64,000 nt of DNA. It comes from an uncultured Dehalococcoidales bacterium. GTDB lineage: Bacteria; Chloroflexota; Dehalococcoidia; GIF9; AB-539-J10. A program made the position numbers and the translations under genes. The DNA is taken from assembly GCA_964394145.1 (NCBI GenBank), contig CAYMVL010000025.1, positions 96,493-160,492 of the forward strand, read 5' to 3'. Below are positions 9,485 to 34,504 of the stretch, in pieces. Position 1 is the stretch's first letter, and the number at the start of each line of letters is the position of its first letter. The notes under the pieces are model-generated. The model was not told where the DNA came from, searched no databases, and saw only the letters and a list, made by a program, of their open reading frames with translations.

Positions 9485-11338
9485 ATGCCATCCGCAGCGA
9501 AGAAAGCAAGCGTCATCATACCGGCCTATAAAGAGGAAGAGGGCCTACCCGTCGTCCTGGAGAAGCTGTTCAATGTGCTGGACGACAGCTACGAGGTGAT
9601 TGTCGTTGACGACGGCTCGCCCGACGGAACGGCCGAAAGGGCCTCTGCCTTTCCCTGCAGGCTGATAAGGCACGAGCAAAACAGGGGCAAGGGCGAGGCG
9701 ATGAGGACGGGGGTGGGACAGGCTCAGAGCGAGAACATAATCTTTATCGATGCCGACGGCACTTACCCGGTAGAAGCCATCCCCGATATATCGGCACAGC
9801 TTCAGGATTTCGACATGGTAGTTGCCGCCCGGACAGGAGGGCGGCAGAATATTCCGCGCTTCAACCGCATAGGCAACTTCATCTTCACCAGGCTGCTGTG
9901 CTATGTCCACGGCTACAAGCTGACAGACCCTCTGAGCGGACTTTACGGCATTAAGAAGGCCCATTTTGAACGAATGCAGCTTTACTCCAGGGGCTTCACT
10001 GTAGAAACAGAGATAGCCATAAAGGCCAGCAGGATGAAACTCAAGCTGGCTGAGATACCCGTAGAATACGCGCCGCGGCTGGGCCAGCAGAAGCTCGGTG
10101 GCATAAGGCACGGTTGGCAGATACTGAAGACGATACTGGGAGAGAAAATCAGGCCCACCGCCCCCACAAGTTCCAGCCGGACCTTGAAGATAGCTATAGT
10201 AGGTTCACGGGGCATACCGGCGAAGTATGGAGGGGCAGAAACGCTGGCTGAGGAACTAGCCGTCAGGTTAACCGGGCAGGGATTTCAAGTCTATGTTACC
10301 TGCGAGTCCCGTAGCTTCCATAAGGATACCTGCGACGGAGTCGTCAGGATTCACTCTCCCTCCATTCAGGGAAAGACTCTCACGGTGCCCAGTGTGAACG
10401 ATATTGTCTCTACCCTCCATCTTCTCCTGAGATGCCGCAGGGTCGGGCTGATATATTACCTCGCCCCTGATTCGGCATTAGCGGCGCTTATTCCCAGGTT
10501 CCTCGGCAAGAAGGTAATCGTCAATACCGACGGAATCGAGTGGAAGCGCCTGACAATACGGCGGCCGTACTTTTCTCCAGCCTGGAAGCCCCTATCGTTG
10601 CTGGTCTCGCGCTATCTTAAATGGATGGAATGGCTGTCAGTGAAAGTGTCACACGCCGTAATCGCCGACTCAAAAGAAATCCAGAAGTACCTCAAGGAAA
10701 CTTACAGGGCTAAGAACGCGGTCTACATATCCTACGGCGCCAGGCAACTGCTGGATCGAGATATTACCGCTGAAAGGGAGCGTGAAGTCCTGGACAGTGT
10801 AGGTTTGTCCCCAGGGGAATACTACTTGACCGTCGGCAGGATAGTCGCCGAGAACAACATTCACAGGGAAATAGAAGGCTTCAAGAGGGCGCGATCGAGC
10901 AAGAACCTTGTTATCGTGGGCAATTTCAACCCGAAAGACAGGTACACACGCTATCTGCTCGGACTGAGGGGCGATGACCCGGGGATAATGCTCCTGGACC
11001 CGATATACGACAAAGAGGTGCTGGGCATATTGAGAAAGAACTGCTATGCTTACATTCATGCCTACGAAGTGGGCGGCACCAACCCATCCCTGCTGGAGCA
11101 GATGCCGTTCGGGAAGCCCGTACTGGCCTATGATGTTCCGTTCCACAGGGAAGTGCTGCAGGACGGAGGGATATACTTTGCAGATGAGGATGGTCTGGCA
11201 AGATGTATTGCCATGCTGGAAGGCGGTGAGATAGATTTAGCTCAGACCAAAACATGCCAGGGCAGAAGAATAGAAGACGAGTATAACTGGGACCATGTCA
11301 CCCAGAAATACGCTTCGTTGTTCAAGGAGTTCTTATGA
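9485..11338 (+). CDS. bifunctional glycosyltransferase: N-terminal GT2 (dolichyl/polyprenyl-phosphate hexosyltransferase-like) fused to C-terminal GT4
   Basis: Residues 1-220: VIIPAYKEEEGLPVVLEKL...EVIVVDDGSPDGTAERA...IIFIDADGTYP, a DPM1-like GT2 with a DAD motif. Residues ~235-617: KIAIVGSRGIPAKYGGAETLAEELAVRL..., a GT4 (DUF1972-type N-terminus) with a C-terminal EX7E-like region. Confidence 0.8.
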   Translation: MPSAAKKASVIIPAYKEEEGLPVVLEKLFNVLDDSYEVIVVDDGSPDGTAERASAFPCRLIRHEQNRGKGEAMRTGVGQAQSENIIFIDADGTYPVEAIPDISAQLQDFDMVVAARTGGRQNIPRFNRIGNFIFTRLLCYVHGYKLTDPLSGLYGIKKAHFERMQLYSRGFTVETEIAIKASRMKLKLAEIPVEYAPRLGQQKLGGIRHGWQILKTILGEKIRPTAPTSSSRTLKIAIVGSRGIPAKYGGAETLAEELAVRLTGQGFQVYVTCESRSFHKDTCDGVVRIHSPSIQGKTLTVPSVNDIVSTLHLLLRCRRVGLIYYLAPDSALAALIPRFLGKKVIVNTDGIEWKRLTIRRPYFSPAWKPLSLLVSRYLKWMEWLSVKVSHAVIADSKEIQKYLKETYRAKNAVYISYGARQLLDRDITAEREREVLDSVGLSPGEYYLTVGRIVAENNIHREIEGFKRARSSKNLVIVGNFNPKDRYTRYLLGLRGDDPGIMLLDPIYDKEVLGILRKNCYAYIHAYEVGGTNPSLLEQMPFGKPVLAYDVPFHREVLQDGGIYFADEDGLARCIAMLEGGEIDLAQTKTCQGRRIEDEYNWDHVTQKYASLFKEFL

Positions 11339-11467
11339 CGACGCCGGTATTAAATTTGGCGCGAATGACCTTCTAAAGATACCTACCCGAAGAGTGCAAT
11401 AGTTTTGACCGATGGGACAGGCCTGACAGATATGTCTCCGCCGGCTCCCGTACACGTAACAAAGAGT

Positions 11468-12688
11468 ATGATGATGACGAGCTCTGAGCAGGCGAAACCA
11501 AAAATAGCCTTGGTGGTGCCCTTTGACTATTTGTCCCTCTACAGCGGGTCGGTACAGAGAGTCAAGGCTGATTTGGCCGCCCTGATGTACGGCGACTACA
11601 ATGTCGAGATGATATTGCCTGCACGTGTCAACGGGCCCGCAGATAACGGCCCTTCGGGGCTAACCACGATAACGTACCCCAACATCCAGCGACTTACGAT
11701 ACTACCGGAAAAAGTGAGGCTGCTCTTCGACATGTATACACAGATGCTTAACCCGTTCTTCCGTTCCACTCTGCGTAAACGCTACGGAGGTTATTCCATA
11801 ATCTTCGCTCATTTTCCCTGGAGCCTTGCCGCATCACACAGGGTGGTAAAAGGGAAGATACCACTCATATACGTGGCTCATGACTTTGAGTATGGCCTGA
11901 TAAGACAGGCTACGCATAACCCCTTAATTCGAAAGCTTACCTATCATGTTGAGAAATCCGCCTGCCACAGCGCAGCAAAGATACTCTGCGTCTCCGAACC
12001 GGATATGAAGGCCTTACAGACGGCCTATGAAGTCCCTGCGGAAAAGTTTGCCCTGCTTCCGAATACCGTGGATACCGATTATCTCGGTCAGACTCGCACC
12101 TTATATGACAGGGGTACTGAACGCCGGAAACTGGGGCTTGACCCCTCCTCTTTCCTCCTGCTCTTCCACGGACGGATGGACTACAGACCGAATCTACATG
12201 CCCTCAGTTTTATTCTAAACGAGCTTGTGCCTGCCCTGAAGGAATGTGGAGATAACCTGCGGCTAATAGTAGCCGGGGCTAGAATTCCACGGTGGAGCTT
12301 CGCTAACAGAGACGAAACCATCTCCTTCTATTCGGATGTCCCGGATATGCGGCGTTTTCTTGCTGTGGCTGACGCCGTCATCGTGCCCTTGAGCATGGGC
12401 GGGGGCACCCGCCTTAAGATACTCGAGTCCTTCGCTGCAAGAGTCCCGGTTATCTCAACAGCCAAAGGAGCTGAGGGCATCGACTGTGAGGATGGCCATC
12501 ATCTATTGATTGCGCGCAGCACAGCAGCAGACTTCGCCACTAAGATTAAGATACTGGCTGCAAGTGCAGACCTGCGGCAGCAACTAGCAGACAATGCCTA
12601 CGACCTGGTCTCAGACAAATATAGCATCCCGGTTGCCAGCAGATGCCTGCAGGACATAATTGCGCACGCCACAGCTCAGGAAATATGA
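11468..12688 (+). CDS. glycosyltransferase family 4
   Basis: GT4 (group 1) fold with a C-terminal sugar-donor-binding region (ILESFAARVPVISTAKGAEGI). The longest ORF starts with a TTG at 11405. ATGs at 11468-11476 give MMMTSSEQAKPKIALVVP, the typical GT4 N-terminus. Confidence 0.75.
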   Translation: MMMTSSEQAKPKIALVVPFDYLSLYSGSVQRVKADLAALMYGDYNVEMILPARVNGPADNGPSGLTTITYPNIQRLTILPEKVRLLFDMYTQMLNPFFRSTLRKRYGGYSIIFAHFPWSLAASHRVVKGKIPLIYVAHDFEYGLIRQATHNPLIRKLTYHVEKSACHSAAKILCVSEPDMKALQTAYEVPAEKFALLPNTVDTDYLGQTRTLYDRGTERRKLGLDPSSFLLLFHGRMDYRPNLHALSFILNELVPALKECGDNLRLIVAGARIPRWSFANRDETISFYSDVPDMRRFLAVADAVIVPLSMGGGTRLKILESFAARVPVISTAKGAEGIDCEDGHHLLIARSTAADFATKIKILAASADLRQQLADNAYDLVSDKYSIPVASRCLQDIIAHATAQEI

Positions 12689-12710: not shown

Positions 12711-15026
12711 ATGACTGGACCTAACGACTGGGAAATCAAGAAATGCCTCCGCATGTCGGTGGCCTTTCTGCTGGCGACAGCTGCTCTGCTGTTGCTGGGC
12801 ATTTCAGGCTTCTATATCCCCGTCTTAACCCAGGTTGTCGGCTTCATCTTCCTGACATTTGTCCCCGGCATCCTTATCCTCAGAATCCTGAAAATTCACA
12901 ATGTCAATGCCATAGAAACCCTGGGCTATTCGGTGGGCTTGAGTATTGCCTTCGTCATGTTCACAGGCCTATTCGCCAACTTCGTCCTGCCCCTTATCGG
13001 CATATTGCAGCCGATTTCTGTCCTGCCGCTGATGGCAACTATAGCCATATTTACCGTGATACTCGGTGCTCTAGCCTATCGGCGGGACAGGGACTTCGCA
13101 CCCGCGAGCTCCGGAGTGCATTTCGACATACGGAACATTATGTCGCCTTACTACCTGCCCCTGTTCTTGCTGCCCGTCATTGCCATCGTGGGGGCCCATC
13201 TAGTTAACATCTATCAGAACAACAGCCTCCTGCTGTTCTTCATCATTGCTGTTGCCTGCGTGGTAGCGCTGGTTGCCTTCGACAAGCTGCCTCGCGGGGC
13301 ATATCCGCTGGCGGTAGCATTAATAGGGCTGAGCCTATTGCTGCACATCACCCTCATATCCACCCAGTTATCCGGCTACATCATCCATTTGGAGTACTAT
13401 TTTGAGAATCTTGTTGTCCAGAACGGATACTGGGATTTCACCATCCGAGAGCACTCTAATAGCGTTGTGAGTGTCGTCCTCTTATGGCCCACATACTCGC
13501 TGCTCCTTAACATGCACGCAATCTGGGTCGTCAAGATTATCTACCCGCTTATCTTCTGCCTCGTGCCTGTGCTCCTCTTTCATATCTTCCGCGGTCAGGT
13601 CGGCGATAAGAAAGCCTTCCTGGCAACCTTCTTCTTTATGTCAGTGCCGATATTCTTTACCATCGTGACCGAGTATGCACGCCAGCAAGTTGCCGAACTA
13701 TTTTTCGCCCTAATAATACTACTGATGATTGACCGAAGCCTGGCGTTAAACCAGAGGATAGCGCTGACAATCATATTTGTCATGTCTTTAATAGTATCCC
13801 ACTATGCCCTGGGCTATATCGTGCTGGCTTTTCTACTGGGCGCCTGGGCTGTAGTAGCCTTAATGAGGAGCGGTGCGGGCCGAAAGCTCTGGAGACCGCT
13901 GACCCGCAAAGGTGGCGCCTTGCCAGAAATCTTGACCTCGCAAAGCGCTTTCCCACATAAAATTATGGCGGTGATTATAGCGGTATATCTGCTTTTCGGA
14001 CTTGGTTGGTATGGAGGGATAGCTGGAGGCTCAGTGCTTAACACTATCAGACAAATTACGCACGAGCAGTACTCGCTGTTATCTGAGGAGTTGCCTGTGC
14101 TGGTAGAGTCAATCGAGCTCCCCGGACCAACAGAGCCAGCGCAACCAGCTCAACCAGCCAGCAAATTCTTCGACCCCTCAGAACGAGAAGCTCTGATTGC
14201 CACTGCCCTCGGCCTTGATTTCGCCTCAGCTTCGCCATGGGATAAAGCCTTCAGGATATTTCAATACCTAACCGAGCTCTTTATCGCGGTGGGCTTTTTT
14301 GTGCTGGTTCTGAGGCCGCGGCGGTTCAAGTTTAAGGCGGAGTATATGGGCTTCGTTATGGTAGCAGCTCTCATTCTGCTTGCGTGCATAGTAGTGCCTC
14401 GTGTTTCTCGCTATCTCGACATTACCAGGTTCTACCATGTCTGTCTGTTCTCTTTAGCACCGTTGTGTATTCTCGGCGCCGAGTGCATCTGGCAAAGAGC
14501 CCTCAGTCTCGCAAGACGCGTTACCAGCAGTCAGTCCCATCAGTTCAGATTGGTCGCCTTAGCCATACTCATACCCTATTTTATATTTACTTCCGGCTTC
14601 GTTTTTGAAGTGACGCAGAGCACCTTAGGGTCCTTCCGCACCTCACCTTATTCCCTAGCCTTAAGCAGTTATAGGATAGATATGCCGGTGTTTACGGAAC
14701 ACGAAAGCGAGGCAGTTGCATGGTTGGCTGAAAGAGCAGACTGTGATGTACAGGTGTACGCTGATGAATACGGCAGATTGCTACTTTACGACCGATTATT
14801 GAATCAAGTAGGCAAGATTCCAGCTTCCGGCGAAGTGCCTGATGAAGCGTACGTGTTTCTCAGGCGCTGGAATACGCAGAAGCGGCAGGTGCACATAGCG
14901 ACACGGCAAGGGCCCCGCTACCCACACAGCTACGTCGATATTGACGATATGCCAGCACTGCTTACCAATCGCAAGTTAGTCTACAATAACGGCGGGGCTC
15001 AAATATGGTCGCCGGTTAAGGAGTGA
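12711..15026 (+). CDS. large polytopic membrane protein (DUF2206-like, possible GT-C-fold glycosyltransferase) with a C-terminal soluble domain
   Basis: 771 aa with about 14 predicted TM helices, followed by a roughly 130 aa soluble C-terminal domain. Sits in a glycosyltransferase operon. A paralogous fragment of its C-terminal domain is found at 15521-15915. Confidence 0.55.
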   Translation: MTGPNDWEIKKCLRMSVAFLLATAALLLLGISGFYIPVLTQVVGFIFLTFVPGILILRILKIHNVNAIETLGYSVGLSIAFVMFTGLFANFVLPLIGILQPISVLPLMATIAIFTVILGALAYRRDRDFAPASSGVHFDIRNIMSPYYLPLFLLPVIAIVGAHLVNIYQNNSLLLFFIIAVACVVALVAFDKLPRGAYPLAVALIGLSLLLHITLISTQLSGYIIHLEYYFENLVVQNGYWDFTIREHSNSVVSVVLLWPTYSLLLNMHAIWVVKIIYPLIFCLVPVLLFHIFRGQVGDKKAFLATFFFMSVPIFFTIVTEYARQQVAELFFALIILLMIDRSLALNQRIALTIIFVMSLIVSHYALGYIVLAFLLGAWAVVALMRSGAGRKLWRPLTRKGGALPEILTSQSAFPHKIMAVIIAVYLLFGLGWYGGIAGGSVLNTIRQITHEQYSLLSEELPVLVESIELPGPTEPAQPAQPASKFFDPSEREALIATALGLDFASASPWDKAFRIFQYLTELFIAVGFFVLVLRPRRFKFKAEYMGFVMVAALILLACIVVPRVSRYLDITRFYHVCLFSLAPLCILGAECIWQRALSLARRVTSSQSHQFRLVALAILIPYFIFTSGFVFEVTQSTLGSFRTSPYSLALSSYRIDMPVFTEHESEAVAWLAERADCDVQVYADEYGRLLLYDRLLNQVGKIPASGEVPDEAYVFLRRWNTQKRQVHIATRQGPRYPHSYVDIDDMPALLTNRKLVYNNGGAQIWSPVKE

Positions 15027-15520: not shown

Positions 15521-15915
15521 ATGCCTAAGACGCAAGAGAATGGTACCGGAATTCTGCGCGCACTTGAAGATTACAAGGTGACAGGGGTTTGGGGAGGCGA
15601 GGGCAGGGTAGTAGTCATAACTGCAGTTAAGGACAAGCAGGCGAAATGCCACTATTGTGGTTCGGCAAGGCGAATCCTTTACGAGCAACTTTTCTGGCAG
15701 GTGGGTACACTGCCAGCTTCAGGAGACGTGCCCCGGGATGCCTATATCTTTTTCAGGACCTGGAATACAAAAAAGAAGAGCTTCTTGTAATGGCGCGTCA
15801 CGGAGCCCAGAGAGAATATGAGTACACTAAACTGAGTGAGATGCCAGCGATACTTGAAGGACGCCACCTAATCTATGACAACGGCGGTGCCCAAATATGG
15901 GCACCAAAGTCACGG
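15521..15915 (+). pseudogene. frameshifted paralog of the C-terminal soluble domain of the 12711-15026 membrane protein
   Basis: Strong RBS GGAAGGAGGT 8 nt before the ATG at 15521. The two frames (15521-15790 and ~15766-15915) together align to ...QVGKIPASGEVPDEAYVFLRRWNTQKRQV...DMPALLTNRKLVYNNGGAQIWSPVKE of the upstream gene. The frame switch falls at an A5 run (15769-15773). There is no in-frame stop before running antisense into the GT2 gene. Confidence 0.5.
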
Positions 15916-16878
15916 CTAATCCTTCCTATAAAATTTCGCACCAGCGTCGCAGTCAAGGAATCCATCCCTTACACCCCTCATAAAAGCAACAAGCCTCCCC
16001 ATGTCACGATAATAGAGCAGACAAGCCGCTGTGGTGAACCAGAACCGATACGCGAAGAAATAGAGGAGGAAGCTGCGATATTGACCTTTGCTGGCATGTT
16101 TCTTCATGAATTTGAAGTTGTTTCTCGTCATATAGTATGCATAATTAGGAGGCGTATCAATTTGATCTTTCCTTCGCAGTGTCTTATACCATGGCTTCAG
16201 CCTGGAGGGTTTCTTATGCCAGATGCTTGCTTTTGGAGCGTAGATAATTTTGTAGCCAGCTTCCCTGGCTCTGAAGCAGTAGTCTGTTTCATCCCAATAA
16301 CAGAAGTAGCTTGTGTCAAGGAATCCAATATGTTGAATAACCTGGCGCTTCACTAAGAAGCAAGAGCCTTGCACATAATTTACCTCGCTAACACAGTCAT
16401 ATTGCCCTCGGTCAACTTCTCCACTGCCTACATGAAAAGCCCTCCCCTTACGCATATCCACACGATACCACACAAGTTGGAGCCTGTCTGGAAAATCATA
16501 GAGGTAAGTCTTTGGTCCAACTATGCCGACTGACTTATCACTCTCCGCAAGCTTGACCATCTCGGTCAGGAAGTCAGGAGCGACGGTAACATCGTTATTC
16601 AGTACCAAGAAATAGTCTGCTGAAGGATCACTTAAGGCGTATCTTATGCCCATGTTATTACCGCCGGTGTAGCCATAATTCTTATCGTTTCGGATTAGAT
16701 GAATGTAATCACCAAAGTCCCCCTCCAGGATCTGCACATCACTCCCCTTAGAGCCATTGTCAACCACAACAACCTCATAGTTTGGATAGGTAATCTTCTT
16801 TAGCGATTCTAGGCACTCAACAGTATCGTCCAGTCCGTTCCAGTTGAGGATTATGATAGAGACTTCGGGATACTTCAT
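15916..16878 (-). CDS. glycosyltransferase family 2
   Basis: VSIIILNWNGLDDTVECLESL...EVVVVDNGS...LNNDV, a classic GT2 with a DxD. Its ATG overlaps the upstream methyltransferase stop as ATGA. Confidence 0.85.
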   Translation of the reverse strand: MKYPEVSIIILNWNGLDDTVECLESLKKITYPNYEVVVVDNGSKGSDVQILEGDFGDYIHLIRNDKNYGYTGGNNMGIRYALSDPSADYFLVLNNDVTVAPDFLTEMVKLAESDKSVGIVGPKTYLYDFPDRLQLVWYRVDMRKGRAFHVGSGEVDRGQYDCVSEVNYVQGSCFLVKRQVIQHIGFLDTSYFCYWDETDYCFRAREAGYKIIYAPKASIWHKKPSRLKPWYKTLRRKDQIDTPPNYAYYMTRNNFKFMKKHASKGQYRSFLLYFFAYRFWFTTAACLLYYRDMGRLVAFMRGVRDGFLDCDAGAKFYRKD

Positions 16879-17561
16879 TTCCCACCACTAATTTGTTTAA
16901 CTGCAAGCAATTGGAATGCCAGTTTTGGGTAGTAGTAGGTAACCTTTTGGCTCAAATCAGAGAGCCTGCCCCATAAAAAGTGGGGGGCGTATTTTGTCTG
17001 ACCCCTATATCCCCTCAGTTTTTTCCAGCCGTTCATTCCATGGACTTCGAACCCTAGCTTCTGTAATTCTTTAGCGGTCCAGCCAGATTTATGCTCTTGT
17101 AATGGATTGTTGTCGTAACCATCCTGCCAGAGGTATCCATTTGGCGTTGTAATTATAACCTTCTTCCCAGCCCATGTTTGCATTTTATTGATTAGCCTAT
17201 ACCCTTCCTCTTTCGTTAAGTGTTCCAACAACTCAATAGCTATAACGACGTCAACGGATTTGGGCCTAAGCTGCATTCCTCTAGCATCCGCCTTAATGTA
17301 TTGATCATGAATACCCTTCCTTTTGCTTTCCTGCAGGTAAGGCTCGAATAGTTCAACCCCAACTGAAAAAGCAACATCACAATGTTGGATTGGAGAATCG
17401 CAACCACAGCCCAAATCTAAAACTGCATCGCAGTTCGAAAGTTCCCTTTTCAAATATTCAATCAAGCTAGGAAATAACCTTCTATAAAAAGGCTTCAAAG
17501 TCTTGATTAGCGAACGTCTCTTCTGTTTTGCTACGATGTCAAAGGATTGCGGACCTTTCAA
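16875..17561 (-). CDS. class I SAM-dependent methyltransferase
   Basis: Motif I VLDLGCGCDSP and a methyltransferase-type-11-like fold. TTG start with no clear SD, so the start is uncertain. Confidence 0.75.
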   Translation of the reverse strand: MKGPQSFDIVAKQKRRSLIKTLKPFYRRLFPSLIEYLKRELSNCDAVLDLGCGCDSPIQHCDVAFSVGVELFEPYLQESKRKGIHDQYIKADARGMQLRPKSVDVVIAIELLEHLTKEEGYRLINKMQTWAGKKVIITTPNGYLWQDGYDNNPLQEHKSGWTAKELQKLGFEVHGMNGWKKLRGYRGQTKYAPHFLWGRLSDLSQKVTYYYPKLAFQLLAVKQISGGK

Positions 17562-27191: not shown

Positions 27192-27410
27192 CTAGTCCAG
27201 ATAGCCCAGAGCCTTGAGCCTCTTCTTTACCTCCTGCTCGTCTTCCTCGCTGAAGCTCCTGTCGCTCTCTTCTTCCTTGACAACTTCTTGCAGCACAAAT
27301 TCAACGTACTCATCCACCGACCCGAAATCAGTAGCCTTCACTCTTTCCTCCACCTTCCGGTAAAGCTCGGCAGGCAAAAACACAGCCTTATTCTCTGCTT
27401 TTTCTGTCAT
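27192..27410 (-). CDS. ribbon-helix-helix (CopG-like) small protein
   Basis: 72 aa (MTEKAENKAVFLPAELYRKVEERVKATDFGSVDEYVEFVLQEVVKEEESDRSFSEEDEQEVKKRLKALGYLD). AAGGAGGT SD 12 nt upstream. Its ATG overlaps the stop of the upstream paralog as ATGA. Confidence 0.6.
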   Translation of the reverse strand: MTEKAENKAVFLPAELYRKVEERVKATDFGSVDEYVEFVLQEVVKEEESDRSFSEEDEQEVKKRLKALGYLD

Positions 27411-27619
27411 AGATAGCCTAACCTCCTTAATCTTTCTCTGATTGCTCTTACCTCTTCCTCGGTAAGCCTGTCCCCTCCCTTTATCTCGCCGCTGGATGCC
27501 AGATTGCGCATAACAAAGATGATGAATTCCGTCACGCTGGAGAAGCCTGTCCCTTTTATCATCTGCGTCAGGCTCAGATAAAGCTCCCTTGGTATCTTGA
27601 TGGTGACCCTGTCTCCCAT
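27407..27619 (-). CDS. ribbon-helix-helix (CopG-like) small protein, paralog of 27192-27410
   Basis: MGDRVTIKIPRELYLSLTQMIKGTGFSSVTEFIIFVMRNLASSGEIKGGDRLTEEEVRAIRERLRRLGYL. Same beta-strand/helix pattern and C-terminal RLxxLGYL motif. Confidence 0.6.
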   Translation of the reverse strand: MGDRVTIKIPRELYLSLTQMIKGTGFSSVTEFIIFVMRNLASSGEIKGGDRLTEEEVRAIRERLRRLGYL

Positions 27620-27679
27620 AACACCCCAATTAGAGTGCAATTGTACTGCAGCATCCCCCCTCGATGCAAGAGCTGTGGC

Positions 27680-27926
27680 AGGCTGCCCAAGCTGGGCCTA
27701 AGCAATCCCGGGGCAGCCATGAGATTGCCGCGCTTCGCTCGCAATGACATGCCATTTTGTCGTTGCGAGGCTGGCCAGACCAGCCGAAGCAATCTGAGGG
27801 GCCAGCGATGGGATTGCCGCGCTTCGCTCGCAATGACATCCCGCTTTGTCGTTGCGAGGCAGGCAAAGCCAGCCGAAGCAATCCCGGGCCAGTGATGAGA
27901 TTGCCACGCTTCGCTCGCAATGACAT
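27680..27926. repeat. tandem array (~2.8 copies) of an 87-89 bp unit, each containing a 12-bp hairpin
   Basis: Units at 27719-27807, 27808-27894 and 27895-~27926 (truncated), plus a partial unit at 27680-27718. The unit begins atgRgattgccgcgcttcgctcgcaatgacat. The inverted repeat ctcgcaatgaca / tgtcgttgcgag allows one G-U pair. It lies between the rfbD stop and the RHH gene start. Confidence 0.8.
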
Positions 27927-27963
27927 AGGAGACACGAGCCCCGCAATAACACGCGGATTATTC

Positions 27964-28833
27964 TCAGGCTATGTGCCCTCTGGCAACCAGGTAATGCTTG
28001 AGCGCTTCCTGCCAGGGCCTCATGTCATCCAGGCCCAGGAGCCGCAGGTGGTAATTGTCCAGCACGGAGTAGCCGGGCCTTATGGCTTTCTGGGGATACC
28101 GGTCTGAGCTTATCGGAATTACCGGGGTCCTCAAGCCCGCCAGCTTCAGTATCTCTCCGGCGAATTCGTACCAGGAACAGGAGCCCCTGTTGGTGATATG
28201 GAATATGCCATAGTATTCGGTCTGGAGAATCTGGGCTATCTTCCCAGCCAGGTCGCCGGTATAGGTGGGGGAGAATACCTGATCATTGACCACCTTGATT
28301 TCGTCGCGCTCTCCGGCCAGCCTGAGCATGGTTTCGATGAAGTTGCCGCCTTTGCCGCTGGAGCCGGCCAGGCCGAAAAGCCCCGAAGCTCTGATGATGA
28401 AGTGCCTGAGGCAAAGATGGCGGACAAGGTCTTCCCCGGCCAGCTTGGACTTGCCGTAAACGCTGAGGGGGACAGGCGTCTCGAATTCGGTGTAGGGGGT
28501 GCTTCGTGGCTCAGCATTACCGCCGAAGACGTAGTCGGTGCTGAGATGTATCAGCTTAGCGCCGAGTTCCTGCGCGACCACCGCGACATTGCGGGCTCCC
28601 AGAGCGTTCACCTGGAAGGCTTTCTCCTTTTCGTCTTCGCAGTCGTCAACGCGAACACAGGCGGCGGTATTGATGATGACATCAGGATTGCGCTTGAGCA
28701 TGGCTCCCCTGACGGAAGCCATGTCGGCAATTTCGATATCGGTATGGGTAAGGGGAATGACATCGAAGTCATGCAGGGCCCGGCACAGATCAGTGCCCAG
28801 TTGTCCGTTAGCGCCTGTTACTGCTACTTTCAC
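27964..28833 (-). CDS. rfbD: dTDP-4-dehydrorhamnose reductase
   Basis: KVAVTGANGQLG Rossmann motif and RmlD topology. The GTG start at 28833 overlaps the rfbB TGA stop as GTGA. The longest ORF, to 28893, would overlap rfbB by 64 nt. Confidence 0.85.
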   Translation of the reverse strand: MKVAVTGANGQLGTDLCRALHDFDVIPLTHTDIEIADMASVRGAMLKRNPDVIINTAACVRVDDCEDEKEKAFQVNALGARNVAVVAQELGAKLIHLSTDYVFGGNAEPRSTPYTEFETPVPLSVYGKSKLAGEDLVRHLCLRHFIIRASGLFGLAGSSGKGGNFIETMLRLAGERDEIKVVNDQVFSPTYTGDLAGKIAQILQTEYYGIFHITNRGSCSWYEFAGEILKLAGLRTPVIPISSDRYPQKAIRPGYSVLDNYHLRLLGLDDMRPWQEALKHYLVARGHIA

Positions 28834-29834
28834 CTTTTGAGGTACATTTCCTCGTAGTATCTTGAGTATTCGCCGCTCTTGATTGACTGCCACCAGGACC
28901 GGTTGTTCAGATACCAGTCAACAGTAGCACCCAGGGCTCCTTCAAAGGTGTAAGCCGGCTTCCAGCCCAGCTCCGCAGTTATCTTGGTGCAATCGAGGGC
29001 GTAGCGGCGGTCGTGGGCGGGACGGTCGGAGACGAATTGTATCAGGCTCTGCGGTTTTCCCAGTAACTCCAGCAACCTGTGGATAAGCTCCAGGTTGCTC
29101 TTCTCATTGCCGCCGCCGATATTGTATATCTCTCCCGGCCGGCCTTTCTGAAGCACGGCATTGAGAGCCCGGCAGTGGTCGTTTACAAAGATCCAGTCCC
29201 TGACATTGAGGCCATCGCCGTACACGGGGACCGGCTTATCCTCCAGAGCGTTGGTGATAGCCAGCGGGATTAGCTTCTCGGGAAACTGGTATGGTCCTAA
29301 GTTGTTAGTACAGCGGGTGATGATTACCGGGACATGGTGGGTCCTGAAGTAGGCAAGAGATAAGAGGTCGGCAGCAGCCTTGCTGGCTGAATACGGGCTG
29401 CTGGGTGACAGAAGCGATTGCTCATCGAAGCGGCCAATATCAACAGAGCCGTAGACTTCATCAGTGGAGACCTGGACAAATCTCCCGATCCCGTGCTTTT
29501 TTGCCCCTTCAAGGAGCACCTGAGTCCCCTTAACATTGGTCTCAATGAATGGAGAGGCGTCCATGATGCTGCGGTCAACGTGGCTCTCGGCGGCACAATT
29601 CACAACGAAATCAAAGCCCTCACCGAGCAACCTATCTACCAGCTTCCTGTCAGCTATATCACCTTTGATGAAACGGTAGCCGGGCCGGCCTTCCATATCC
29701 TTTAAGTTCTCCATGTTGCCGGCATAGGTGAGCTTGTCCAGATTGCTTATCTCCCAGTCGGCATGTTCTTGCCGGATATGGCGAATGAAATTAGAGCCGA
29801 TGAAGCCGGCGCCCCCGGTGACCAGTAGCTTCAT
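28830..29834 (-). CDS. rfbB: dTDP-glucose 4,6-dehydratase
   Basis: MKLLVTGGAGFIGSNF... and a YSASKAA catalytic motif. The ATG at 29834 is preceded by GGAGGAGG and overlaps the rfbC stop as ATGA. Confidence 0.9.
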   Translation of the reverse strand: MKLLVTGGAGFIGSNFIRHIRQEHADWEISNLDKLTYAGNMENLKDMEGRPGYRFIKGDIADRKLVDRLLGEGFDFVVNCAAESHVDRSIMDASPFIETNVKGTQVLLEGAKKHGIGRFVQVSTDEVYGSVDIGRFDEQSLLSPSSPYSASKAAADLLSLAYFRTHHVPVIITRCTNNLGPYQFPEKLIPLAITNALEDKPVPVYGDGLNVRDWIFVNDHCRALNAVLQKGRPGEIYNIGGGNEKSNLELIHRLLELLGKPQSLIQFVSDRPAHDRRYALDCTKITAELGWKPAYTFEGALGATVDWYLNNRSWWQSIKSGEYSRYYEEMYLKR

Positions 29835-30400
29835 TTCGCCTCCTCCATGTAGTGAAACCGGATATCGGCATCCCTCAGAGCGGGCCATTTTTCATCTTTT
29901 GCGGATAAAATAGGGTCTTTAACAGGCCACTCGATATTCAGCTCTGCATCATTCCAGATAATACCGGCTTCAGATTTGAGTGAGTAAACATCGGTGGTCT
30001 TATATATCACTTCGGCAATGTCCGAAAGAACACAGAAACCATGGGCCAGTCCTGCCGGGATATAGAGCATATTCCTGTTTTCCTCCGACAGGACTACACC
30101 CACCCATTTGCCCCGCGCAGGCGAGCCCTCTCTTATGTCAACGGCGACATCAAATATCTCGCCCCTTACCACCCTGACCAGCTTCCCCTGCGCGAAAGGC
30201 GGCTTCTGATAATGCAGCCCCCTGAGAACGCCTTTGCTGGAACGGGAGTGGTTCTCCTGGACAAAAGCCGCCTTTATGCCACCAGCAACGAAGTCCGGCA
30301 TCTTGTATGTTTCCATAAAGAAACCCCTGCCGTCTTCAAATACCTCTGGCTCTATCAGGACCAGTCCTGGAATATCTAGCGTCTTGAAAGCGAATGGCAC
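29831..30400 (-). CDS. rfbC: dTDP-4-dehydrorhamnose 3,5-epimerase
   Basis: RmlC cupin (GLVLIEPEVFEDGRGFF, RGLHYQ). GTG start at 30400 with an AAGGGAGAGG SD. Confidence 0.9.
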   Translation of the reverse strand: MPFAFKTLDIPGLVLIEPEVFEDGRGFFMETYKMPDFVAGGIKAAFVQENHSRSSKGVLRGLHYQKPPFAQGKLVRVVRGEIFDVAVDIREGSPARGKWVGVVLSEENRNMLYIPAGLAHGFCVLSDIAEVIYKTTDVYSLKSEAGIIWNDAELNIEWPVKDPILSAKDEKWPALRDADIRFHYMEEAK

Positions 30401-30420
30401 GTAAAACCTCTCCCTTGCTG

Positions 30421-30530
30421 GTTCAATAGTTCAATGGTTTCATGGTTCAATAGTTCAATAGTTCAATGGTTCAATGGTTTCATGGTTCAATCGTTGTTGG
30501 TTTTTTGGTTGCTGGTTTGCTGGTTCTTAA
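30421..30530. repeat. 8-nt periodic simple repeat (GTTCAATR) x9, decaying into GTTGYTG-like units
   Basis: gttcaatagttcaatggtttcatggttcaatagttcaatagttcaatggttcaatggtttcatggttcaatcgttgttgg... fills the rfbC to four-helix-bundle-gene spacer. The degenerate part encodes the C-terminal KPATKKPTTIEP tail of the four-helix-bundle protein. Confidence 0.8.
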
Positions 30531-30878
30531 GTAGCGAATGAAACCCTGTAACATCCTGGCAACTTTGCTGCATTGCTCCGTTAATGAGTCGAATTGATTA
30601 CCACTAATGTAATGCAAATCCAAAGCGGCGTAAAGTTGGGATTGAGCCTCTGCTGTAGAACGTAGAGAATAGCCCAGGAAAGTTGTAAATTCTCTGTTCG
30701 ATTGACACATAAAACCTTCGGCAATATTGGACATAACAGATATAACAGCCCGCTGAATTTGATCTCTCAACTCTCGGTCATTTTTGAATGGTGCTTTATT
30801 AGTGGCTTCATAAACCATCTTAACCAGTAACCTTGCCTCTCTCCATGCCTCTATATCCTCAAATCGCTCAATCTTCAT
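30480..30878 (-). CDS. four-helix-bundle protein (23S rRNA IVS protein / Avd-like family), second copy
   Basis: MKIERFEDIEAWREARLLVKMVYEATNKAPFKNDRELRDQIQRAVISVMSNIAEGF...STAEAQSQLYAALDLHYI, the canonical TIGR02436 pattern. Inserted between rfbA and rfbC. Confidence 0.8.
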   Translation of the reverse strand: MKIERFEDIEAWREARLLVKMVYEATNKAPFKNDRELRDQIQRAVISVMSNIAEGFMCQSNREFTTFLGYSLRSTAEAQSQLYAALDLHYISGNQFDSLTEQCSKVARMLQGFIRYLRTSKPATKKPTTIEP

Positions 30879-30887
30879 TAACTCTCA

Positions 30888-30935
30888 AACTATCTAACCA
30901 TCAACTATCTAACCATGTAACTATCTAACCACCCA
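30888..30935. repeat. about 3 tandem copies of a 15-16 nt unit ACTATCTAACCAYSW
   Basis: aactatctaaccatca / actatctaaccatgta / actatctaaccaccca fills the entire rfbA-stop to four-helix-bundle-start spacer. Confidence 0.7.
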
Positions 30936-30943: not shown

Positions 30944-32035
30944 CTACAGCTCCACTCTGGCATCGTCGCCGACGAAAAGCCTCAGCGCCTTCAATGTCTG
31001 CCTGCCTTGTGTTACCTCGGTGCCCCGGCCTATAACGCTATCAGCCAGGCGCTCGATTCCAGAGATACGGCATCTCTCCAGTATCACCGAGTGCCCGATG
31101 GACGACCCCTCTATCACAGTACCCGCTCCAACGCTCGTGAAAGGGCCGATGAATGAATTCTTAACCTTACAGTCCTGATCTATGGAGACCGGCCCCCTGA
31201 TGGTGCTGTTTTCTATGCTTGTCCCTTCTCTGATTTCGACTCTGCCGGCCACCTGGCTGCCGGCATCAACCTCACCCCTCAAGTCGCGCTTTACAAATTC
31301 ATCAAGTACAACGCGGTTAGCTTCCAGCAGGTCGTCTTTCTTGCCCGTATCCAGCCACCAGCCTGTGAGGATATGGCTTCGGACCTTCTTGCCGGAATCA
31401 ATGAGCTGCTGGATGGTATCGGTTATTTCAAGTTCTCCCCGCCAGGAGGGTTCTATCCTCTCTATTGCACGGTGCACTTCTCCTGTGAAAAGATAAACGC
31501 CGGGCACTGCCAGATTTGTCTTCGGCTCGCGTGGTTTTTCCACAATGCTGGTTATCTCGCCTCTCTCGTTTAGTTCGGCAACGCCGAACAGACGCGGGTC
31601 TGGGACCTCTTTAAGCAGGACAAGCGCATCAGCCCTGTTTGTCGTAAACTCCTGAACAAAACTCCTGACGCCGCCCTGAATAAGATTGTCGCCAAGAAAC
31701 ATCAAGAAGGCAGAATCGCCCAGGAAGTCCCGGGCTGTCTTCACAGCATGGGCAAGCCCCAGAGGTTCGGATTGTAAAATGTAAGTAATTTGGGCATTCC
31801 ACCTTGAACCATCGCCCACAGCTTCCTTTATCCCCTGCCCCGTTTCCGGTGAAATAATAATTCCGATATCGTCTATCCCGGCTTCAGCGACCTGCTCCAA
31901 AACATAATACAGTATGGGCTTATTAGCCACCGCAATAAGCTGTTTCGCCAGAGTGTTGGTTAGGGGCCTGAGCCTGGTGCCCTTGCCCCCGCAGAGGATA
32001 ATAGCTTTCATGCCGGACAGGCGCTGCTCGTTCAT
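30944..32035 (-). CDS. rfbA: glucose-1-phosphate thymidylyltransferase, long form with C-terminal left-handed beta-helix domain
   Basis: N-terminal [11 protein letters not shown] nucleotidyltransferase motif. It is 363 aa with a C-terminal hexapeptide-repeat region ([20 protein letters not shown]...). An alternative ATG at 32011 gives MKAIILCGG. Confidence 0.85.
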
Positions 32036-32122
32036 TCGTTTATCCTGTCTTCATTCCTCATCATACAGGAAAGGCTCTCCACGGACAATAGCTATTTGGT
32101 AAGGGGCTTTCACGTTCGTAAT

Positions 32123-34504
32123 TCACGACCCGGCTGGCCTGACATACTCAAAGATCTTTATCTGCGGTGAACTGTGACCTGCCAGCGTCGCCGTGGCAGG
32201 AGATTCATAGACTATCCTGTAGCTGTGCAACTCCTCCAGAGGCACAGCGCTGGCGAAGGGATCGGCGCTCACTATGCGCTGCTCTCCCGGCTCCTGGCTC
32301 GACATATACGCCTCTGCCTCGCCATAGCTGGAAAATGACTCTACCTTGGTGATTATCTTGTAGTCTGTCCCCTCCTGGCTGACCACCCGGTAAGAGATAA
32401 CAAGTATCTGCCCGGGCAGCTGAGCCTTAGCATCAAAGTTGTAAAGCCTGACCACCATAGAATTATAATAGGCAGGATAGAACAGGGTTATCTGCTCCAG
32501 TTTGCCGTCTCCGCTTTCCTGATAATAGGTGTCGTAGAACTCGTCCTGGCTCCCTCCCACCCACTGCGGCATGGCATAGAACTTGGAGCTGGCCATAGCA
32601 TGGTCAATTATTATGTATTTTGAGCCGACCTTGTCCATCATTTCCCCGGCTGAATCCTCGTCCTGAGCAAGGAAGAAGTGCGCCACATTCTGGACACCCT
32701 GCTGAAACGGGTTGGAAACGGGTATACGGTGGGCGATGCGGCTTATCCAGTGACCGTAGTCCCACCAGGAGAGTACGCTATAGGCGGTATCGGGGTACTG
32801 AAACGGTGTCTCATATAGCTGATAATAGGCATCAGGGTCGTCAAAGGGCTCAGGGCTATTAGACTTGAGCCACTCAAGCGAGCTATGCCACGCCTCGGTG
32901 ATGAGAAGTGGATTCCGGGCAATTGCCTCAGCTTTGCTGAAATTGGGGAAGAAGATAAGAAAGAAAAGGGCTACACCGGTCAGGATTACCCTGACCCGAA
33001 GAATCTTGCGCTGCCGCAGCGCCCTCACGTCCACCCGCCCCTCAACTCTCCTTTTCTGCTTTGCCTTCCTTGTTTGTACGTAATCTTTGACCAGATCAAC
33101 AGGCTCAGCCAGTAACTGTTTCAGCCCGGCGAAATCCAGGACCCTCCAGGCGAAATATCCTGCCAGCAAAGCCGCATTTACGGCGAAATAATAGCTGAAG
33201 CGGCGCTGCCCCAGAACGGCTACCAGCATTATCAGGCTCCATACCAGGAACAGCGTTTTATCTGGGCTCTCTTCCTTGATGCTGCGGTAAATCAGCCAGC
33301 CAAACGATATGAAGCAGATAAAGAAAGAGGTGGTGAAGTTGACCCAGGCTATCCTGAGGGAGAATGTGCCGTACGGCAACAGTAAAGGCTGCATCTCCAG
33401 TATGGTCAGGGCAGCACCGGCAGGGCTGAAGATGCTAAATCTAGCGAGCATTGAGTGGAGCAAGGCTGGATTAGCGGCATGAAAGATAGCAAGACCGATG
33501 CCGGCAAGCGCGGCCAGCGCTACAGGATAGAAGAAAGGCCTGACGCCTTGCCGGGTCATCACTCTGGAAATGCCGCTCAAGGCTACGGGCGCCAGTATGG
33601 CAACCAGGAAGGAGGCGGTATAGATAGAACTGAGCTGGTGTGCGGATAGATAAGGGAGATTGATTATAAGGGAGACAAGGAAAACCAGCACTCCAATCAT
33701 ACACAGGTAATCGGTTGATTTACCCCGCACGTGGTCTATGATGAACTGAATTAGCAGCCAGGCAGATATGATGAAGATAAGCAGCAGACCACCCACCCAG
33801 GTGAGAAGATAGATGCCCAGGAAGATGCCGGCAACTAAGGCATAAATGAGGGGCTTGATTACTTTGTTGCGCTCCCCTGTCCTCCCCCCTGAATGCAGAG
33901 GAAAAAGATGGTTGAAGGATATCTCTCTTTCTTTGAATTTCTTTACCGCCAGTATCAGGAATAGTATAGTCACAGCAGAGAATAAGCTCTCGGCCACATG
34001 GTGGTCCGCAAAGCCAAGCAGCGAGCGATTCAGAAATTCACCCGGCAGTACGGCCACCAGGCCCGCAGCGACTACACCCACCCAGCGATTGAATAGCTGC
34101 CTGCCTATGAAATAGACCGGAACAATCGTTACGGCAGCGAGAATGGGTGGAAGATAAGCTCCCGCTAAATCTATGCTGTGCTGCGACGGCGAACCCAGGT
34201 CAAGCAGCCAGGCGAAGCCGCCTACAAGCCAGTCAAAGAAGGGGGGCCAGGGCACCATGGTGCCACTGGGATAGTAGGTATAGGGGTCAAAAGCGATGCG
34301 GTGGGGAAAGTGCTGCAACAGGTTATCCACCAGCCTCATGTGGTACCAGGCATCGGTGCCTTGAAACCACACCGAGCCATGGCCAAAAACGTTGTCATAG
34401 GGCAGGGCTATACGAATATATAGAGAAATCCCGGCTATGATGAGCAGGGCTATGGTAACGATAAGGGATGGCCGGAGGCGACTTCTATTCACCTGAGTCG
34501 ACAT
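32123..34504 (-). CDS. aglB: oligosaccharyltransferase, STT3/AglB/PglB family (GT-C fold)
   Basis: 793 aa with about 13 N-terminal TM helices and a C-terminal periplasmic domain carrying the diagnostic WWDYGHWI motif. A downstream MMDKVGSKYIIID segment resembles the DK/MI motif. First gene of the 13-kb minus-strand cluster. Confidence 0.85.
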   Translation of the reverse strand: MSTQVNRSRLRPSLIVTIALLIIAGISLYIRIALPYDNVFGHGSVWFQGTDAWYHMRLVDNLLQHFPHRIAFDPYTYYPSGTMVPWPPFFDWLVGGFAWLLDLGSPSQHSIDLAGAYLPPILAAVTIVPVYFIGRQLFNRWVGVVAAGLVAVLPGEFLNRSLLGFADHHVAESLFSAVTILFLILAVKKFKEREISFNHLFPLHSGGRTGERNKVIKPLIYALVAGIFLGIYLLTWVGGLLLIFIISAWLLIQFIIDHVRGKSTDYLCMIGVLVFLVSLIINLPYLSAHQLSSIYTASFLVAILAPVALSGISRVMTRQGVRPFFYPVALAALAGIGLAIFHAANPALLHSMLARFSIFSPAGAALTILEMQPLLLPYGTFSLRIAWVNFTTSFFICFISFGWLIYRSIKEESPDKTLFLVWSLIMLVAVLGQRRFSYYFAVNAALLAGYFAWRVLDFAGLKQLLAEPVDLVKDYVQTRKAKQKRRVEGRVDVRALRQRKILRVRVILTGVALFFLIFFPNFSKAEAIARNPLLITEAWHSSLEWLKSNSPEPFDDPDAYYQLYETPFQYPDTAYSVLSWWDYGHWISRIAHRIPVSNPFQQGVQNVAHFFLAQDEDSAGEMMDKVGSKYIIIDHAMASSKFYAMPQWVGGSQDEFYDTYYQESGDGKLEQITLFYPAYYNSMVVRLYNFDAKAQLPGQILVISYRVVSQEGTDYKIITKVESFSSYGEAEAYMSSQEPGEQRIVSADPFASAVPLEELHSYRIVYESPATATLAGHSSPQIKIFEYVRPAGS

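Follow-up and report, generated by a model that had tools for sequence, protein, structure and literature searches.

Gene content and boundaries of the locus

The window analysed here is a stretch of 64,000 nucleotides from an uncultured Dehalococcoidales bacterium (contig CAYMVL010000025.1). It harbours a block of ~25 kb (9485-34504), delineated by open reading frame (ORF) listing, tRNA search and profile searches, which is headed by a gene for an AglB-type oligosaccharyltransferase (OST) and which we regard as a likely protein N-glycosylation locus. The OST gene and the features that bound the block are:

32123-34504, minus strand: AglB-type oligosaccharyltransferase (GT66), 793 amino acids (aa) (Pfam, TIGR04154, PDB match, motifs)
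9182-9253, minus strand: tRNA-Arg(ccg), left boundary (ARAGORN, Rfam)
34797-35372, minus strand: RidA-family gene, right flank
35475-35560 and 35710-35798, plus strand: tRNA-Ser(cga) and tRNA-Ser(gga), right boundary (ARAGORN)

The coordinates and gene content proposed in an earlier reading of this DNA from its letters alone (the sequence-only reading) were confirmed almost gene for gene by the ORF listing, ARAGORN and the Pfam/NCBIfam profiles. The same reading had called the rest of the window unambiguously bacterial. This is borne out by flank genes for NrdR, DprA, a bacterial-type topoisomerase I (TopA), EF-P, ClpP, trigger factor and bacterial AspS and AlaS, with TopA being 70-79% identical to that of Dehalococcoidia metagenome-assembled genomes (MAGs). 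We assign the host to an uncultured Dehalococcoidia bacterium that appears to have no close sequenced relative; proteins identical to those of the window are also present on JGI metagenome contigs and on an NCBI contig. An Rfam scan of the whole window returned four tRNAs and nothing else, and a promoter/terminator scan of the region from 20.5 to 36 kb was uninformative, the counts equalling the shuffled expectation.

An oligosaccharyltransferase of archaeal type

The OST scores 114.2 bits against Pfam STT3 (PF02516, cutoff 24.5; residues 30-404), 96.4 bits against AglB_core-like (PF22627, cutoff 27) and 705.5 bits against the NCBIfam model TIGR04154, [quoted passage not shown] (curated cutoff 450). 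A grouping with ArnT/PMT-type GT-C glycosyltransferases was not observed, the match to PMT_2 being marginal (27 bits). In a PDB sequence search, residues 20-684 align with AglB-L of Archaeoglobus fulgidus (PDB 3WAJ/5GMY, E 6e-81), eukaryotic STT3A and STT3B give weak matches, and no PglB chain matches at E<0.01.

The motifs of the active site and of the sequon-binding pocket are intact. The signature WWDYGHW is located at residues 580-586 (WWDYG, 580-584) and is identical in 75 of 76 homologues. Acidic motifs are present in external loop 1 (GTD51AWYH, aligned with GNDPWYY of 3WAJ) and in external loop 2 (AD167H168H169, aligned with NDHH); they provide counterparts of the metal-binding residues D47, D161 and H163 of A. 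fulgidus AglB-L. The TIXE motif of external loop 5 reads LT367ILE370, and R434/R435 lie within GQRR435FSYY. The DK motif, D634HAMASSK641FYAM645 (D634xxMxxxK641xxxM645), is of the insertion type and aligns with DIEMETGKYYAM of A. fulgidus AglB-L. All six catalytic or sequon-binding motifs are conserved across the 76 homologues. Thus, the earlier assignment of this WWDYG-bearing protein to the STT3/AglB family is borne out by the hidden Markov models (HMMs), by the structure match over the full length and by the intact motifs.

Judged by its nearest structure, A. fulgidus AglB-L, the OST is specifically of the archaeal type. Since AglB-L is nearest and PglB does not match, the analogy with archaeal Agl loci fits and that with Pgl does not. 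The sequence-only reading had offered both, as the repertoire of archaeal Agl or epsilonproteobacterial Pgl loci; its first half stands, whereas the second falls with the missing PglB match and the missing PglC-type primer (see below). With its catalytic apparatus intact, the enzyme is predicted to transfer a lipid-linked glycan to Asn in N-X-S/T.

The gene is not newly detected. In IMG the window's own sequence carries the name "oligosaccharyl transferase (archaeosortase A-associated)", and an equivalent name is given to the homologues in Dehalococcoidia MAGs by PGAP; the gap is one of recognition and experiment, as pipelines already name the gene correctly. In protein clusters formed at 90% identity, a 187-aa fragment stands for the full-length OST, so that the self-match of the OST is invisible in the homology search and its top identity of 63% understates database coverage; this value is therefore no sign that the genome is missing from databases.

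Relatives and history of the oligosaccharyltransferase

A scan of one genome per GTDB species yielded at least 519 relatives of the OST, and a tree was calculated from the best 80 matches. The best matches, with 41-67% identity (the top ~28 of the GTDB scan), all belong to Dehalococcoidia, Dehalococcoidales or Chloroflexota MAGs. These are followed, at 32-40%, by sequences from Methanosarcinales, Methanocellales, ANME-1/Methanophagales, Syntrophoarchaeum and Methanothrix. In a neighbour-joining tree of 76 full-length OSTs, 30 bacterial sequences are split from 46 archaeal ones with a bootstrap support of 196/200 (98%). The bacterial group is internally as divergent as the archaeal one (mean identity 49%, minimum 32%). 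The nearest homologues of the OST (63%) and of TopA (79%) are both from Dehalococcoidia, which fits the vertical inheritance of a membrane protein that evolves faster. As its nearest relatives are Dehalococcoidia/Chloroflexota sequences and the bacterial clade is split deeply from the archaea, we consider the OST an old, lineage-typical gene of the Dehalococcoidia and not a recent import. According to our proposal, AglB would have entered the Dehalococcoidia once and long ago, and would derive from, or be shared with, archaea of the Methanosarcinales/ANME-1 type.

Three OST-bearing contigs carry odd labels (L018, L043 and L067): those assigned to Nitrospirota and Verrucomicrobiota fall inside the Dehalococcoidia clade, and the one assigned to Thermodesulfobacteriota falls inside the Methanosarcinales. 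The labels are probably due to mis-binning.

An AglB homologue that persists in bacteria might also be a decaying or repurposed relic with no part in protein glycosylation, and neither an acceptor nor an archaeosortase partner was identified. The gene encodes a full-length protein, its position as the first gene of the operon is conserved, and every catalytic motif has been kept in 30 bacterial sequences that have diverged to 32% identity, which indicates purifying selection. We would give a relic almost no credence.

Rhamnose pathway and glycan-assembly enzymes

Elsewhere in the block, the following genes for sugar activation, glycan assembly and export were identified:

30944-32035, minus strand: RmlA, long-form glucose-1-phosphate thymidylyltransferase (TIGR01208, 477.8 bits, cutoff 320)
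29831-30400, minus strand: RmlC, dTDP-4-dehydrorhamnose 3,5-epimerase (TIGR01221, 255 bits, cutoff 156)
28830-29834, minus strand: RmlB, dTDP-glucose 4,6-dehydratase (TIGR01181, 471.9 bits, cutoff 365)
27964-28833, minus strand: RmlD, dTDP-4-dehydrorhamnose reductase (TIGR01214, 304 bits, cutoff 224)
21429-23090, minus strand: MOP/Wzx-type flippase (Pfam Polysacc_synt, Polysacc_synt_3, MatE)
9485-11338, plus strand: fusion of a GT2 and a GT4 glycosyltransferase, 617 aa (Pfam, NCBIfam, PDB)
11405-12688, plus strand: GT4 glycosyltransferase (Pfam Glyco_trans_1_4, Glyco_transf_4, Glycos_transf_1)
15916-16878, minus strand: GT2 glycosyltransferase, weakly rhamnosyltransferase-like (Pfam Glycos_transf_2, 86 bits)
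16875-17561, minus strand: S-adenosylmethionine-dependent methyltransferase (Pfam Methyltransf_11, Methyltransf_25)

The full dTDP-L-rhamnose pathway that had been recognized before is present, each of the four Rml proteins exceeding its NCBIfam equivalog cutoff. The true ATG of rmlB is at 29834 and overlaps the rmlC stop codon, and rmlD starts with a GTG at 28833 that overlaps the rmlB stop codon.

Residues 1-230 of the fusion protein represent a polyprenyl-phosphate hexosyltransferase of the AglJ/DPM1 type. Residues 6-217 match the catalytic domain of the dolichol-phosphate-mannose synthase of Pyrococcus furiosus (5MLZ, E 1.2e-21), and the best NCBIfam model for this domain is AglJ (119.5 bits, cutoff 325). 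The remainder, residues 235-617 (DUF1972 plus GT4), is Cps2T/WchF-like, reaching 214 bits with the NCBIfam model for the beta-1,4-rhamnosyltransferase Cps2T, below the cutoff. A GT2 of the AglJ/DPM1 type is found no more than 10 kb from the OST gene in seven Chloroflexota loci and in seven archaeal loci. No primer of the PglC/WbaP or WecA type was detected, that is, no ORF of the block contains a Pfam Bac_transf or Glycos_transf_4 (MraY/WecA) domain.

The separate GT2 scores 82 bits with TIGR01556, below its cutoff of 200, and has a 53% identical copy in the related locus L005, where a 69% identical copy of the methyltransferase follows the Rml genes. A mechanically called ORF at 15646-16356 is an antisense artefact over this GT2 gene.

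A sulfate module and sulfatase-fold proteins

The second group of genes relates to sulfate:

26361-27158, minus strand: TauE/SafE (TSUP) anion permease (Pfam PF01925, 90 bits)
25534-26343, minus strand: CysD, sulfate adenylyltransferase small subunit (NF003587, 343.6 bits, cutoff 195)
23860-25068, minus strand: CysN-like GTPase of the EF-1alpha/CysN family, lacking an APS-kinase domain (APS, adenosine 5'-phosphosulfate; Pfam GTP_EFTU)
23087-23863, minus strand: protein of the alkaline phosphatase (AlkP) superfamily (Phosphodiest), 258 aa, no signal peptide (Pfam PF01663, 54 bits)
17729-19099, plus strand: sulfatase-fold protein 1 (Pfam Sulfatase, 157 bits)
19104-20483, plus strand: sulfatase-fold protein 2, 62% identical to protein 1 (Pfam Sulfatase, 157 bits)
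20520-21434, plus strand: divergent sulfatase/AlkP-fold protein, 304 aa (Pfam Sulfatase, 25.2 bits, at the cutoff)

Copies of the TauE permease, which may transport sulfate or sulfite, adjoin the OST gene in L027 and L014 (63-68% identity). CysD has 84% identical counterparts in L001 and L027. The CysN-like GTPase remains below all curated NCBIfam cutoffs and scores higher with EF-1alpha (384 bits, cutoff 502) than with CysN (291 bits, cutoff 336). The gene for the AlkP-fold protein is translationally coupled to cysN. As a triad, CysD, CysN and the AlkP-fold protein recur beside the OST, with 70-84% identity, in the window (23087-26343, minus strand), L001 (12197-15115) and L027 (15384-18233). 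Profile scans revealed neither an APS kinase nor a sulfotransferase in the block or downstream of the triad in L001, the L027 contig ending too early for this comparison. Of the set for sulfation that depends on 3'-phosphoadenosine 5'-phosphosulfate (PAPS), consisting of CysDN, CysC and a sulfotransferase, the block holds only CysD and the CysN-like GTPase. A conserved triad without APS kinase or sulfotransferase suggests an unrecognized use of APS, and the AlkP-fold protein is a candidate for the APS-using enzyme; a PDB sequence search with this protein returned nothing useful.

The third sulfatase-fold protein is 30-34% identical to its two paralogues. None of the three proteins has a C/S-x-P-x-R formylglycine motif or a signal peptide. 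In protein 1, T49 aligns with the formylglycine cysteine and F53 with the arginine of the motif (PDB 4UPL, 4FDI); protein 2 likewise has a threonine at the formylglycine position. In L027, too, a sulfatase-fold gene (18351-18581) faces the CysDN-AlkP module in convergent orientation. The three proteins of the block are thus predicted to share the fold of S1 sulfatases but not their chemistry, and are not to be taken for classical sulfatases. Of the earlier description as three sulfatase-fold proteins and an alkaline-phosphatase-family protein, the fold is upheld by Pfam, whereas classical sulfatase chemistry is not.

DUF2206, a second membrane-bound candidate

Two features of the block relate to the DUF2206 family:

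12711-15026, plus strand: DUF2206 membrane protein, 771 aa, a GT-C-fold glycosyltransferase with a C-terminal globular domain
15668-15906, plus strand: pseudogene debris, left from a second DUF2206 gene and covering its C-terminal ~80 residues with a frameshift (tblastn)

The protein combines a GT-C transmembrane fold with a C-terminal domain that resembles the C-terminal domain of AglB-S2. The likeness to AglB is structural only and does not extend to sequence, as a comparison with AglB profiles (hhalign) found no relationship (probability 0.5%); a PDB sequence search returned nothing useful either. DUF2206 homologues are numerous in Dehalococcoidia, and in both contexts examined in this class they reside inside glycan-assembly clusters. 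We found no paper mentioning DUF2206 in a literature search.

The remnant is covered by two tblastn high-scoring segment pairs in different frames (57% and 41% identity, E 5e-21). It accounts for the pseudogene part of what had been described as internal pseudogene and toxin-antitoxin (TA) debris; TA genes were not found in the window.

Synteny in relatives and plasticity of the locus

In related genomes, too, the OST gene opens an operon, the cargo of which differs between genomes. In L081 and L083 it is followed by an NTP_transferase gene with overlapping stop and start codons and by a flippase gene, and then by methyltransferases, a pyruvyl transferase, or Rml genes and an IVP gene (see below). 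The order in L005 is OST..RmlACBD-methyltransferase-GT2. L027 has OST-Wzx-RHH-TauE-CysD-CysN-AlkP (RHH, ribbon-helix-helix protein), followed by the convergent sulfatase-fold gene, and L001 has OST..CysD-CysN-AlkP-MBOAT.

This pattern bears on the question whether the block encodes a Wzx-dependent surface polysaccharide, such as an extracellular polysaccharide (EPS) or an S-layer-associated glycopolymer, with DUF2206 as polymerase or ligase and the OST either incidental or transferring the polymer en bloc. Rml proteins, GT2/GT4 glycosyltransferases, Wzx and a methyltransferase are also typical of O-antigen and EPS loci, DUF2206 homologues occur in such clusters without an OST within 10 kb, and MBOAT and PAP2 genes lie beside the sulfate module in L001. 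The comparison of loci did not reveal a generic OST-less O-antigen or EPS locus; the glycan genes change from locus to locus around a constant OST. We consider a polysaccharide locus unlikely.

The position of the OST relative to tRNA genes is not conserved. In five other loci (L001, L005, L031, L081 and L083, of which L081 and L083 share their context) the OST adjoins different tRNA genes (Leu; Arg and His; Phe, Leu, Gln and Asn; Gly), located 0.3-1.5 kb upstream of it. TA pairs (HicB, HEPN/NTase) are present between tRNA and OST in L081 and L083. In the relative closest by TopA (79%), L088 (GCA_016933195.1, JAFGBN010000009.1), synteny with the window is kept from the racemase gene to AspS. 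To the left of the same tRNA-Ser(cga), L088 carries a tyrosine integrase, an AAA_25 protein, an HTH_17 protein and small ORFs (1-5700), an integrative element in the place taken by RidA and the OST block in the window. Also conserved in L088 is the gene for a lipoprotein at 37780-38991 (plus strand) of the window, with the lipobox LIGAC, a Pro-rich linker and PKD/Ig-like repeats, which is plausibly a surface protein.

Taken by itself, such a neighbourhood could suggest that the 25-kb block is a recent genomic island, inserted between tRNA genes and brought from an archaeon. There are tRNA genes on both flanks, an integrase-bearing element sits at the same tRNA-Ser in the closest relative, OST loci of other MAGs adjoin different tRNAs, and pseudogene debris is present. 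Furthermore, the GC content at third codon positions (GC3) is higher and more heterogeneous in block genes (0.587±0.079) than in the flanks (0.507±0.044), and the codon-frequency correlation between block and flanks is 0.79, compared to 0.94 between split halves. Against this stand the absence from the block of integrase and transposase domains (Pfam) and of any att-type repeat of the flanking tRNAs, no tRNA-fragment repeat of more than 13 nt being found inside or at the far end of the block. In addition, for the three proteins searched in this respect, OST, DUF2206 and TopA, the nearest homologues are from Dehalococcoidia, as are the close copies of CysD, CysN, the AlkP-fold protein, the Rml proteins, the methyltransferase and the GT2 in the compared loci, none of which is archaeal. 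The bacterial OST clade is as deep as the archaeal one, and none of 46 archaeal AglB genes has a gene for DUF2206, CysDN, an AlkP-fold or a sulfatase-fold protein in its 10-kb neighbourhood. We regard a recent archaeal island as very improbable, and an archaeal origin of the whole block is largely refuted. The lack of a conserved site, the shifted codon usage and the lack of an integrase or att repeats rather point to a plastic, modular locus that is exchanged within the class. The glycan-building cargo behind AglB would accordingly be modular and shared out among Dehalococcoidia.

Of the earlier suggestion of an acquired or fast-evolving island, the second term is supported by module shuffling, the GC3 shift and the pseudogene remnant, and the first applies to the cargo only, not to the OST. 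Likewise, the synteny comparison that it had called for identified the OST as a conserved anchor, but not a conserved tRNA-bounded location or an att repeat.

Operon structure, small ORFs and repeats

The remaining features of the block are small:

30480-30878, minus strand: four-helix-bundle "23S rRNA IVP" protein (Pfam PF05635, 110 bits; TIGR02436)
25136-25507, minus strand: second four-helix-bundle IVP-family gene, between cysD and cysN (Pfam PF05635, 82 bits)
27630-27950: non-coding spacer of 330 bp between rmlD and the RHH genes (TRF, self-BLAST)
27407-27619, minus strand: small RHH (CopG-type) protein 1, 70 aa (Pfam RHH_1, 23.5 bits, cutoff 20.5)
27192-27410, minus strand: small paralogous protein 2, 72 aa (DNA alignment with L027 and L014, translation)

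The minus-strand run that had been described as one unit of 13 genes exists, but it comprises 14 genes and is interrupted by the spacer. With its tandem repeat, the spacer divides the run into two sub-units, OST-Rml and RHH-TauE-CysD-IVP-CysN-AlkP-Wzx. Read base by base and with correct starts, the start-stop overlaps noted before are real (ATGA for RmlC/RmlB, GTGA for RmlB/RmlD, ATGA for CysN/AlkP); two more were read as TTGA (AlkP/Wzx) and ATGA (RHH1/RHH2).

The tandem repeat of the spacer has a unit of 89 bp in 2.6 copies (27696-27926, 84% matches by TRF) and no other copy in the window. Translations of this repeat yield pseudo-peptides (LPRFARND / CHCERSAAIS / VIASEARQSH) that are often mis-called as hypothetical proteins. 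Two mechanically called ORFs, 27192-27629 and 27630-27935, were rejected as artefacts, as the alignment with L027 and L014 resolves this region into two RHH ORFs and the tandem-repeat spacer. The RHH proteins end in ...RLRRLGYL and ...RLKALGYLD, and the pair precedes TauE in the window, in L027 (14090-14506) and in L014 (2158-2574); it probably represents a dedicated pair of regulators.

The IVP gene at 30480-30878 has a GC3 of 0.38, compared to ~0.6 in its neighbours, and is bracketed by short tandem repeats at 30419-30495 and 30879-30931 (GGTTAGATAGTT three times upstream, TTGAACCA/TTGAACTA 9.6 times downstream), so it looks like an inserted cassette. IVP genes are also present in L083 and L088.

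A model for N-glycosylation in Dehalococcoidia

Taking these observations together, we think it likely that the block is a protein N-glycosylation locus of a Dehalococcoidia bacterium that works in the manner of the euryarchaeal Agl systems and not in that of Campylobacter Pgl. The sequence-only reading, a protein-glycosylation-type locus headed by an STT3/AglB OST in a bacterial genome, is supported; neither an ArnT/PMT-type grouping of the OST nor a generic OST-less locus in relatives, the two outcomes it had named as contrary, was seen. The glycan product is predicted to contain rhamnose and is probably methylated and sulfated.

The gene identities rest on sequence, and the order of steps is our proposal. 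RmlABCD, each identified by an equivalog HMM, would provide dTDP-L-rhamnose. The GT2 domain of the fusion protein may load a hexose onto a polyprenyl monophosphate, the lipid carrier presumably being a bacterial polyprenol, and the fused Cps2T-like domain may add rhamnose. The GT4 and GT2 enzymes would extend the glycan, and the methyltransferase would O-methylate one of its sugars. TauE and CysD/CysN would supply APS for sulfation on the cytoplasmic side by a signal-peptide-less AlkP- or sulfatase-fold protein with a Ser/Thr nucleophile, which is the weakest step of the model. The MOP flippase would then move the lipid-linked glycan outward, and AglB is predicted to transfer it to Asn in N-X-S/T sequons of surface proteins. 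For the DUF2206 enzyme, its GT-C fold and the operon shared with the DPM1-like GT2 suggest that it most likely adds a sugar at the outer face from a polyprenyl-phosphate-sugar donor, like AglS or ArnT.

Several points weigh against this model. Glycoprotein, glycan and enzyme activities are all deduced from gene identity. No acceptor was identified, the nearby lipoprotein (37780-38991) having a single sequon. The OST belongs to an "archaeosortase A-associated" HMM subfamily, yet the bacterial loci are without PGF-CTERM: with ~20 kb sampled per genome, no PGF-CTERM-like tails were found in the window or in the Dehalococcoidia loci, and two were found in archaeal loci. The AglJ and Cps2T matches of the fusion protein are below equivalog cutoffs, and its DPM1-like domain could serve the DUF2206 enzyme instead of priming the N-glycan. 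For the proposed sulfation chemistry we know of no precedent; the CysN-like GTPase does not reach its curated cutoff, and an APS kinase is missing. Finally, the tree is unrooted, has no outgroup and comprises the best 80 matches, so donor and direction of transfer are not established.

A wider reading goes beyond this model and is offered tentatively, with the odds rather against it: the locus might encode a complete archaeal-style N-glycosylation system on polyprenyl monophosphate, which arose from one ancient inter-domain transfer and includes two uncharacterized enzyme types. In this case DUF2206 would be a new GT-C family with an AglB-like C-terminal domain, acting as outer-face finisher or even as a second, non-STT3 OST, such as the sulfated rhamnose glycan that Haloferax attaches independently of AglB would require. 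APS made by CysDN would be used directly by cytoplasmic AlkP/sulfatase-fold enzymes with a Ser/Thr nucleophile, with neither PAPS nor a classical sulfotransferase.

The cultured Dehalococcoidia are not known to possess peptidoglycan and have S-layer-like envelopes. To our knowledge, textbooks restrict OST-dependent N-glycosylation in bacteria to PglB of Campylobacterota and some Desulfobacterota. A full-text literature search found no paper on AglB/STT3 or N-glycosylation genes in Dehalococcoidia or Chloroflexota, and a 2025 study of Chloroflexota archaella discusses O-glycosylation only (PMC12488501). If our reading is correct, the class-wide AglB clade would constitute a second, mechanistically different system of bacterial N-glycosylation. 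Such a system would suit the archaeal-like, wall-less envelope of the Dehalococcoidia and add to recent evidence for archaeal surface machinery, e.g. archaella, in Chloroflexota (PMC12488501). The model predicts Asn-linked hexose-rhamnose glycans that are methylated and sulfated, and the OSTs of the clade would be of use to glycoengineering as new single-subunit enzymes. Two questions of archaeal glycobiology, which enzyme serves as the AglB-independent OST and which one carries out sulfation, would gain candidate answers in DUF2206 and the CysDN-AlkP module.

Comparison with known systems

AglB-L of A. fulgidus, which uses a dolichol-monophosphate donor, is homologous to the OST of the window over its full length and has the same set of motifs, including the insertion-type DK motif. 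With the Agl systems of Euryarchaeota (in Haloferax volcanii AglJ/G/I/E, AglR, AglB and AglD/AglS) the locus has in common a candidate primer of the AglJ/DPM1 type, a MOP-type flippase and clustered glycosyltransferases, and the second GT-C enzyme, DUF2206, could play the role of AglS. In Haloferax, AglJ puts the first hexose on dolichol phosphate (PMC3892788). The locus differs from Agl in its bacterial host, in the fusion of the GT2 to a rhamnosyltransferase, and in that no archaeosortase or PGF-CTERM partner was seen in the sampled loci.

The closest functional parallel is the low-salt pathway of H. volcanii; both the product predicted for the window (hexose, rhamnose, sulfate) and the pathway logic resemble it strikingly. 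Agl11-Agl14 of that pathway are homologues of RmlABCD. The low-salt N-glycan consists of a sulfated hexose, two hexoses and rhamnose and is built on dolichol phosphate by Agl5-Agl15, with Agl11-14 acting in glycan biogenesis, Agl7 in sulfation of the lipid-linked hexose and Agl15 as flippase (PMC3892788). An assignment of Haloferax Agl7 to the sulfatase-fold proteins was considered and dropped; the text of the paper never uses the word "sulfatase" (PMC3892788). A difference lies in the transfer step, which is AglB-independent and has an unidentified OST in Haloferax (PMC3892788), whereas AglB heads the locus here.

Like the proposed system, the Pgl systems of Campylobacter and Desulfovibrio are bacterial and rely for N-glycosylation on an STT3-family OST of one subunit, whose gene lies in a cluster for glycan assembly. 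They use undecaprenyl-diphosphate donors and the sequon D/E-X-N-X-S/T. The block differs in that it has no PglB match, no PglC-type primer and no bacillosamine genes, and in that its motifs are of the archaeal TIXE and DK type. The ArnC/ArnT, GtrB/GtrC and DPM1/PMT pairs resemble the combination of a DPM1-family GT2 with a GT-C membrane enzyme, here DUF2206, in one operon. Among these systems, the locus probably represents N-glycosylation of the archaeal type that has its home in a class of bacteria and is equipped with unusual accessory modules.

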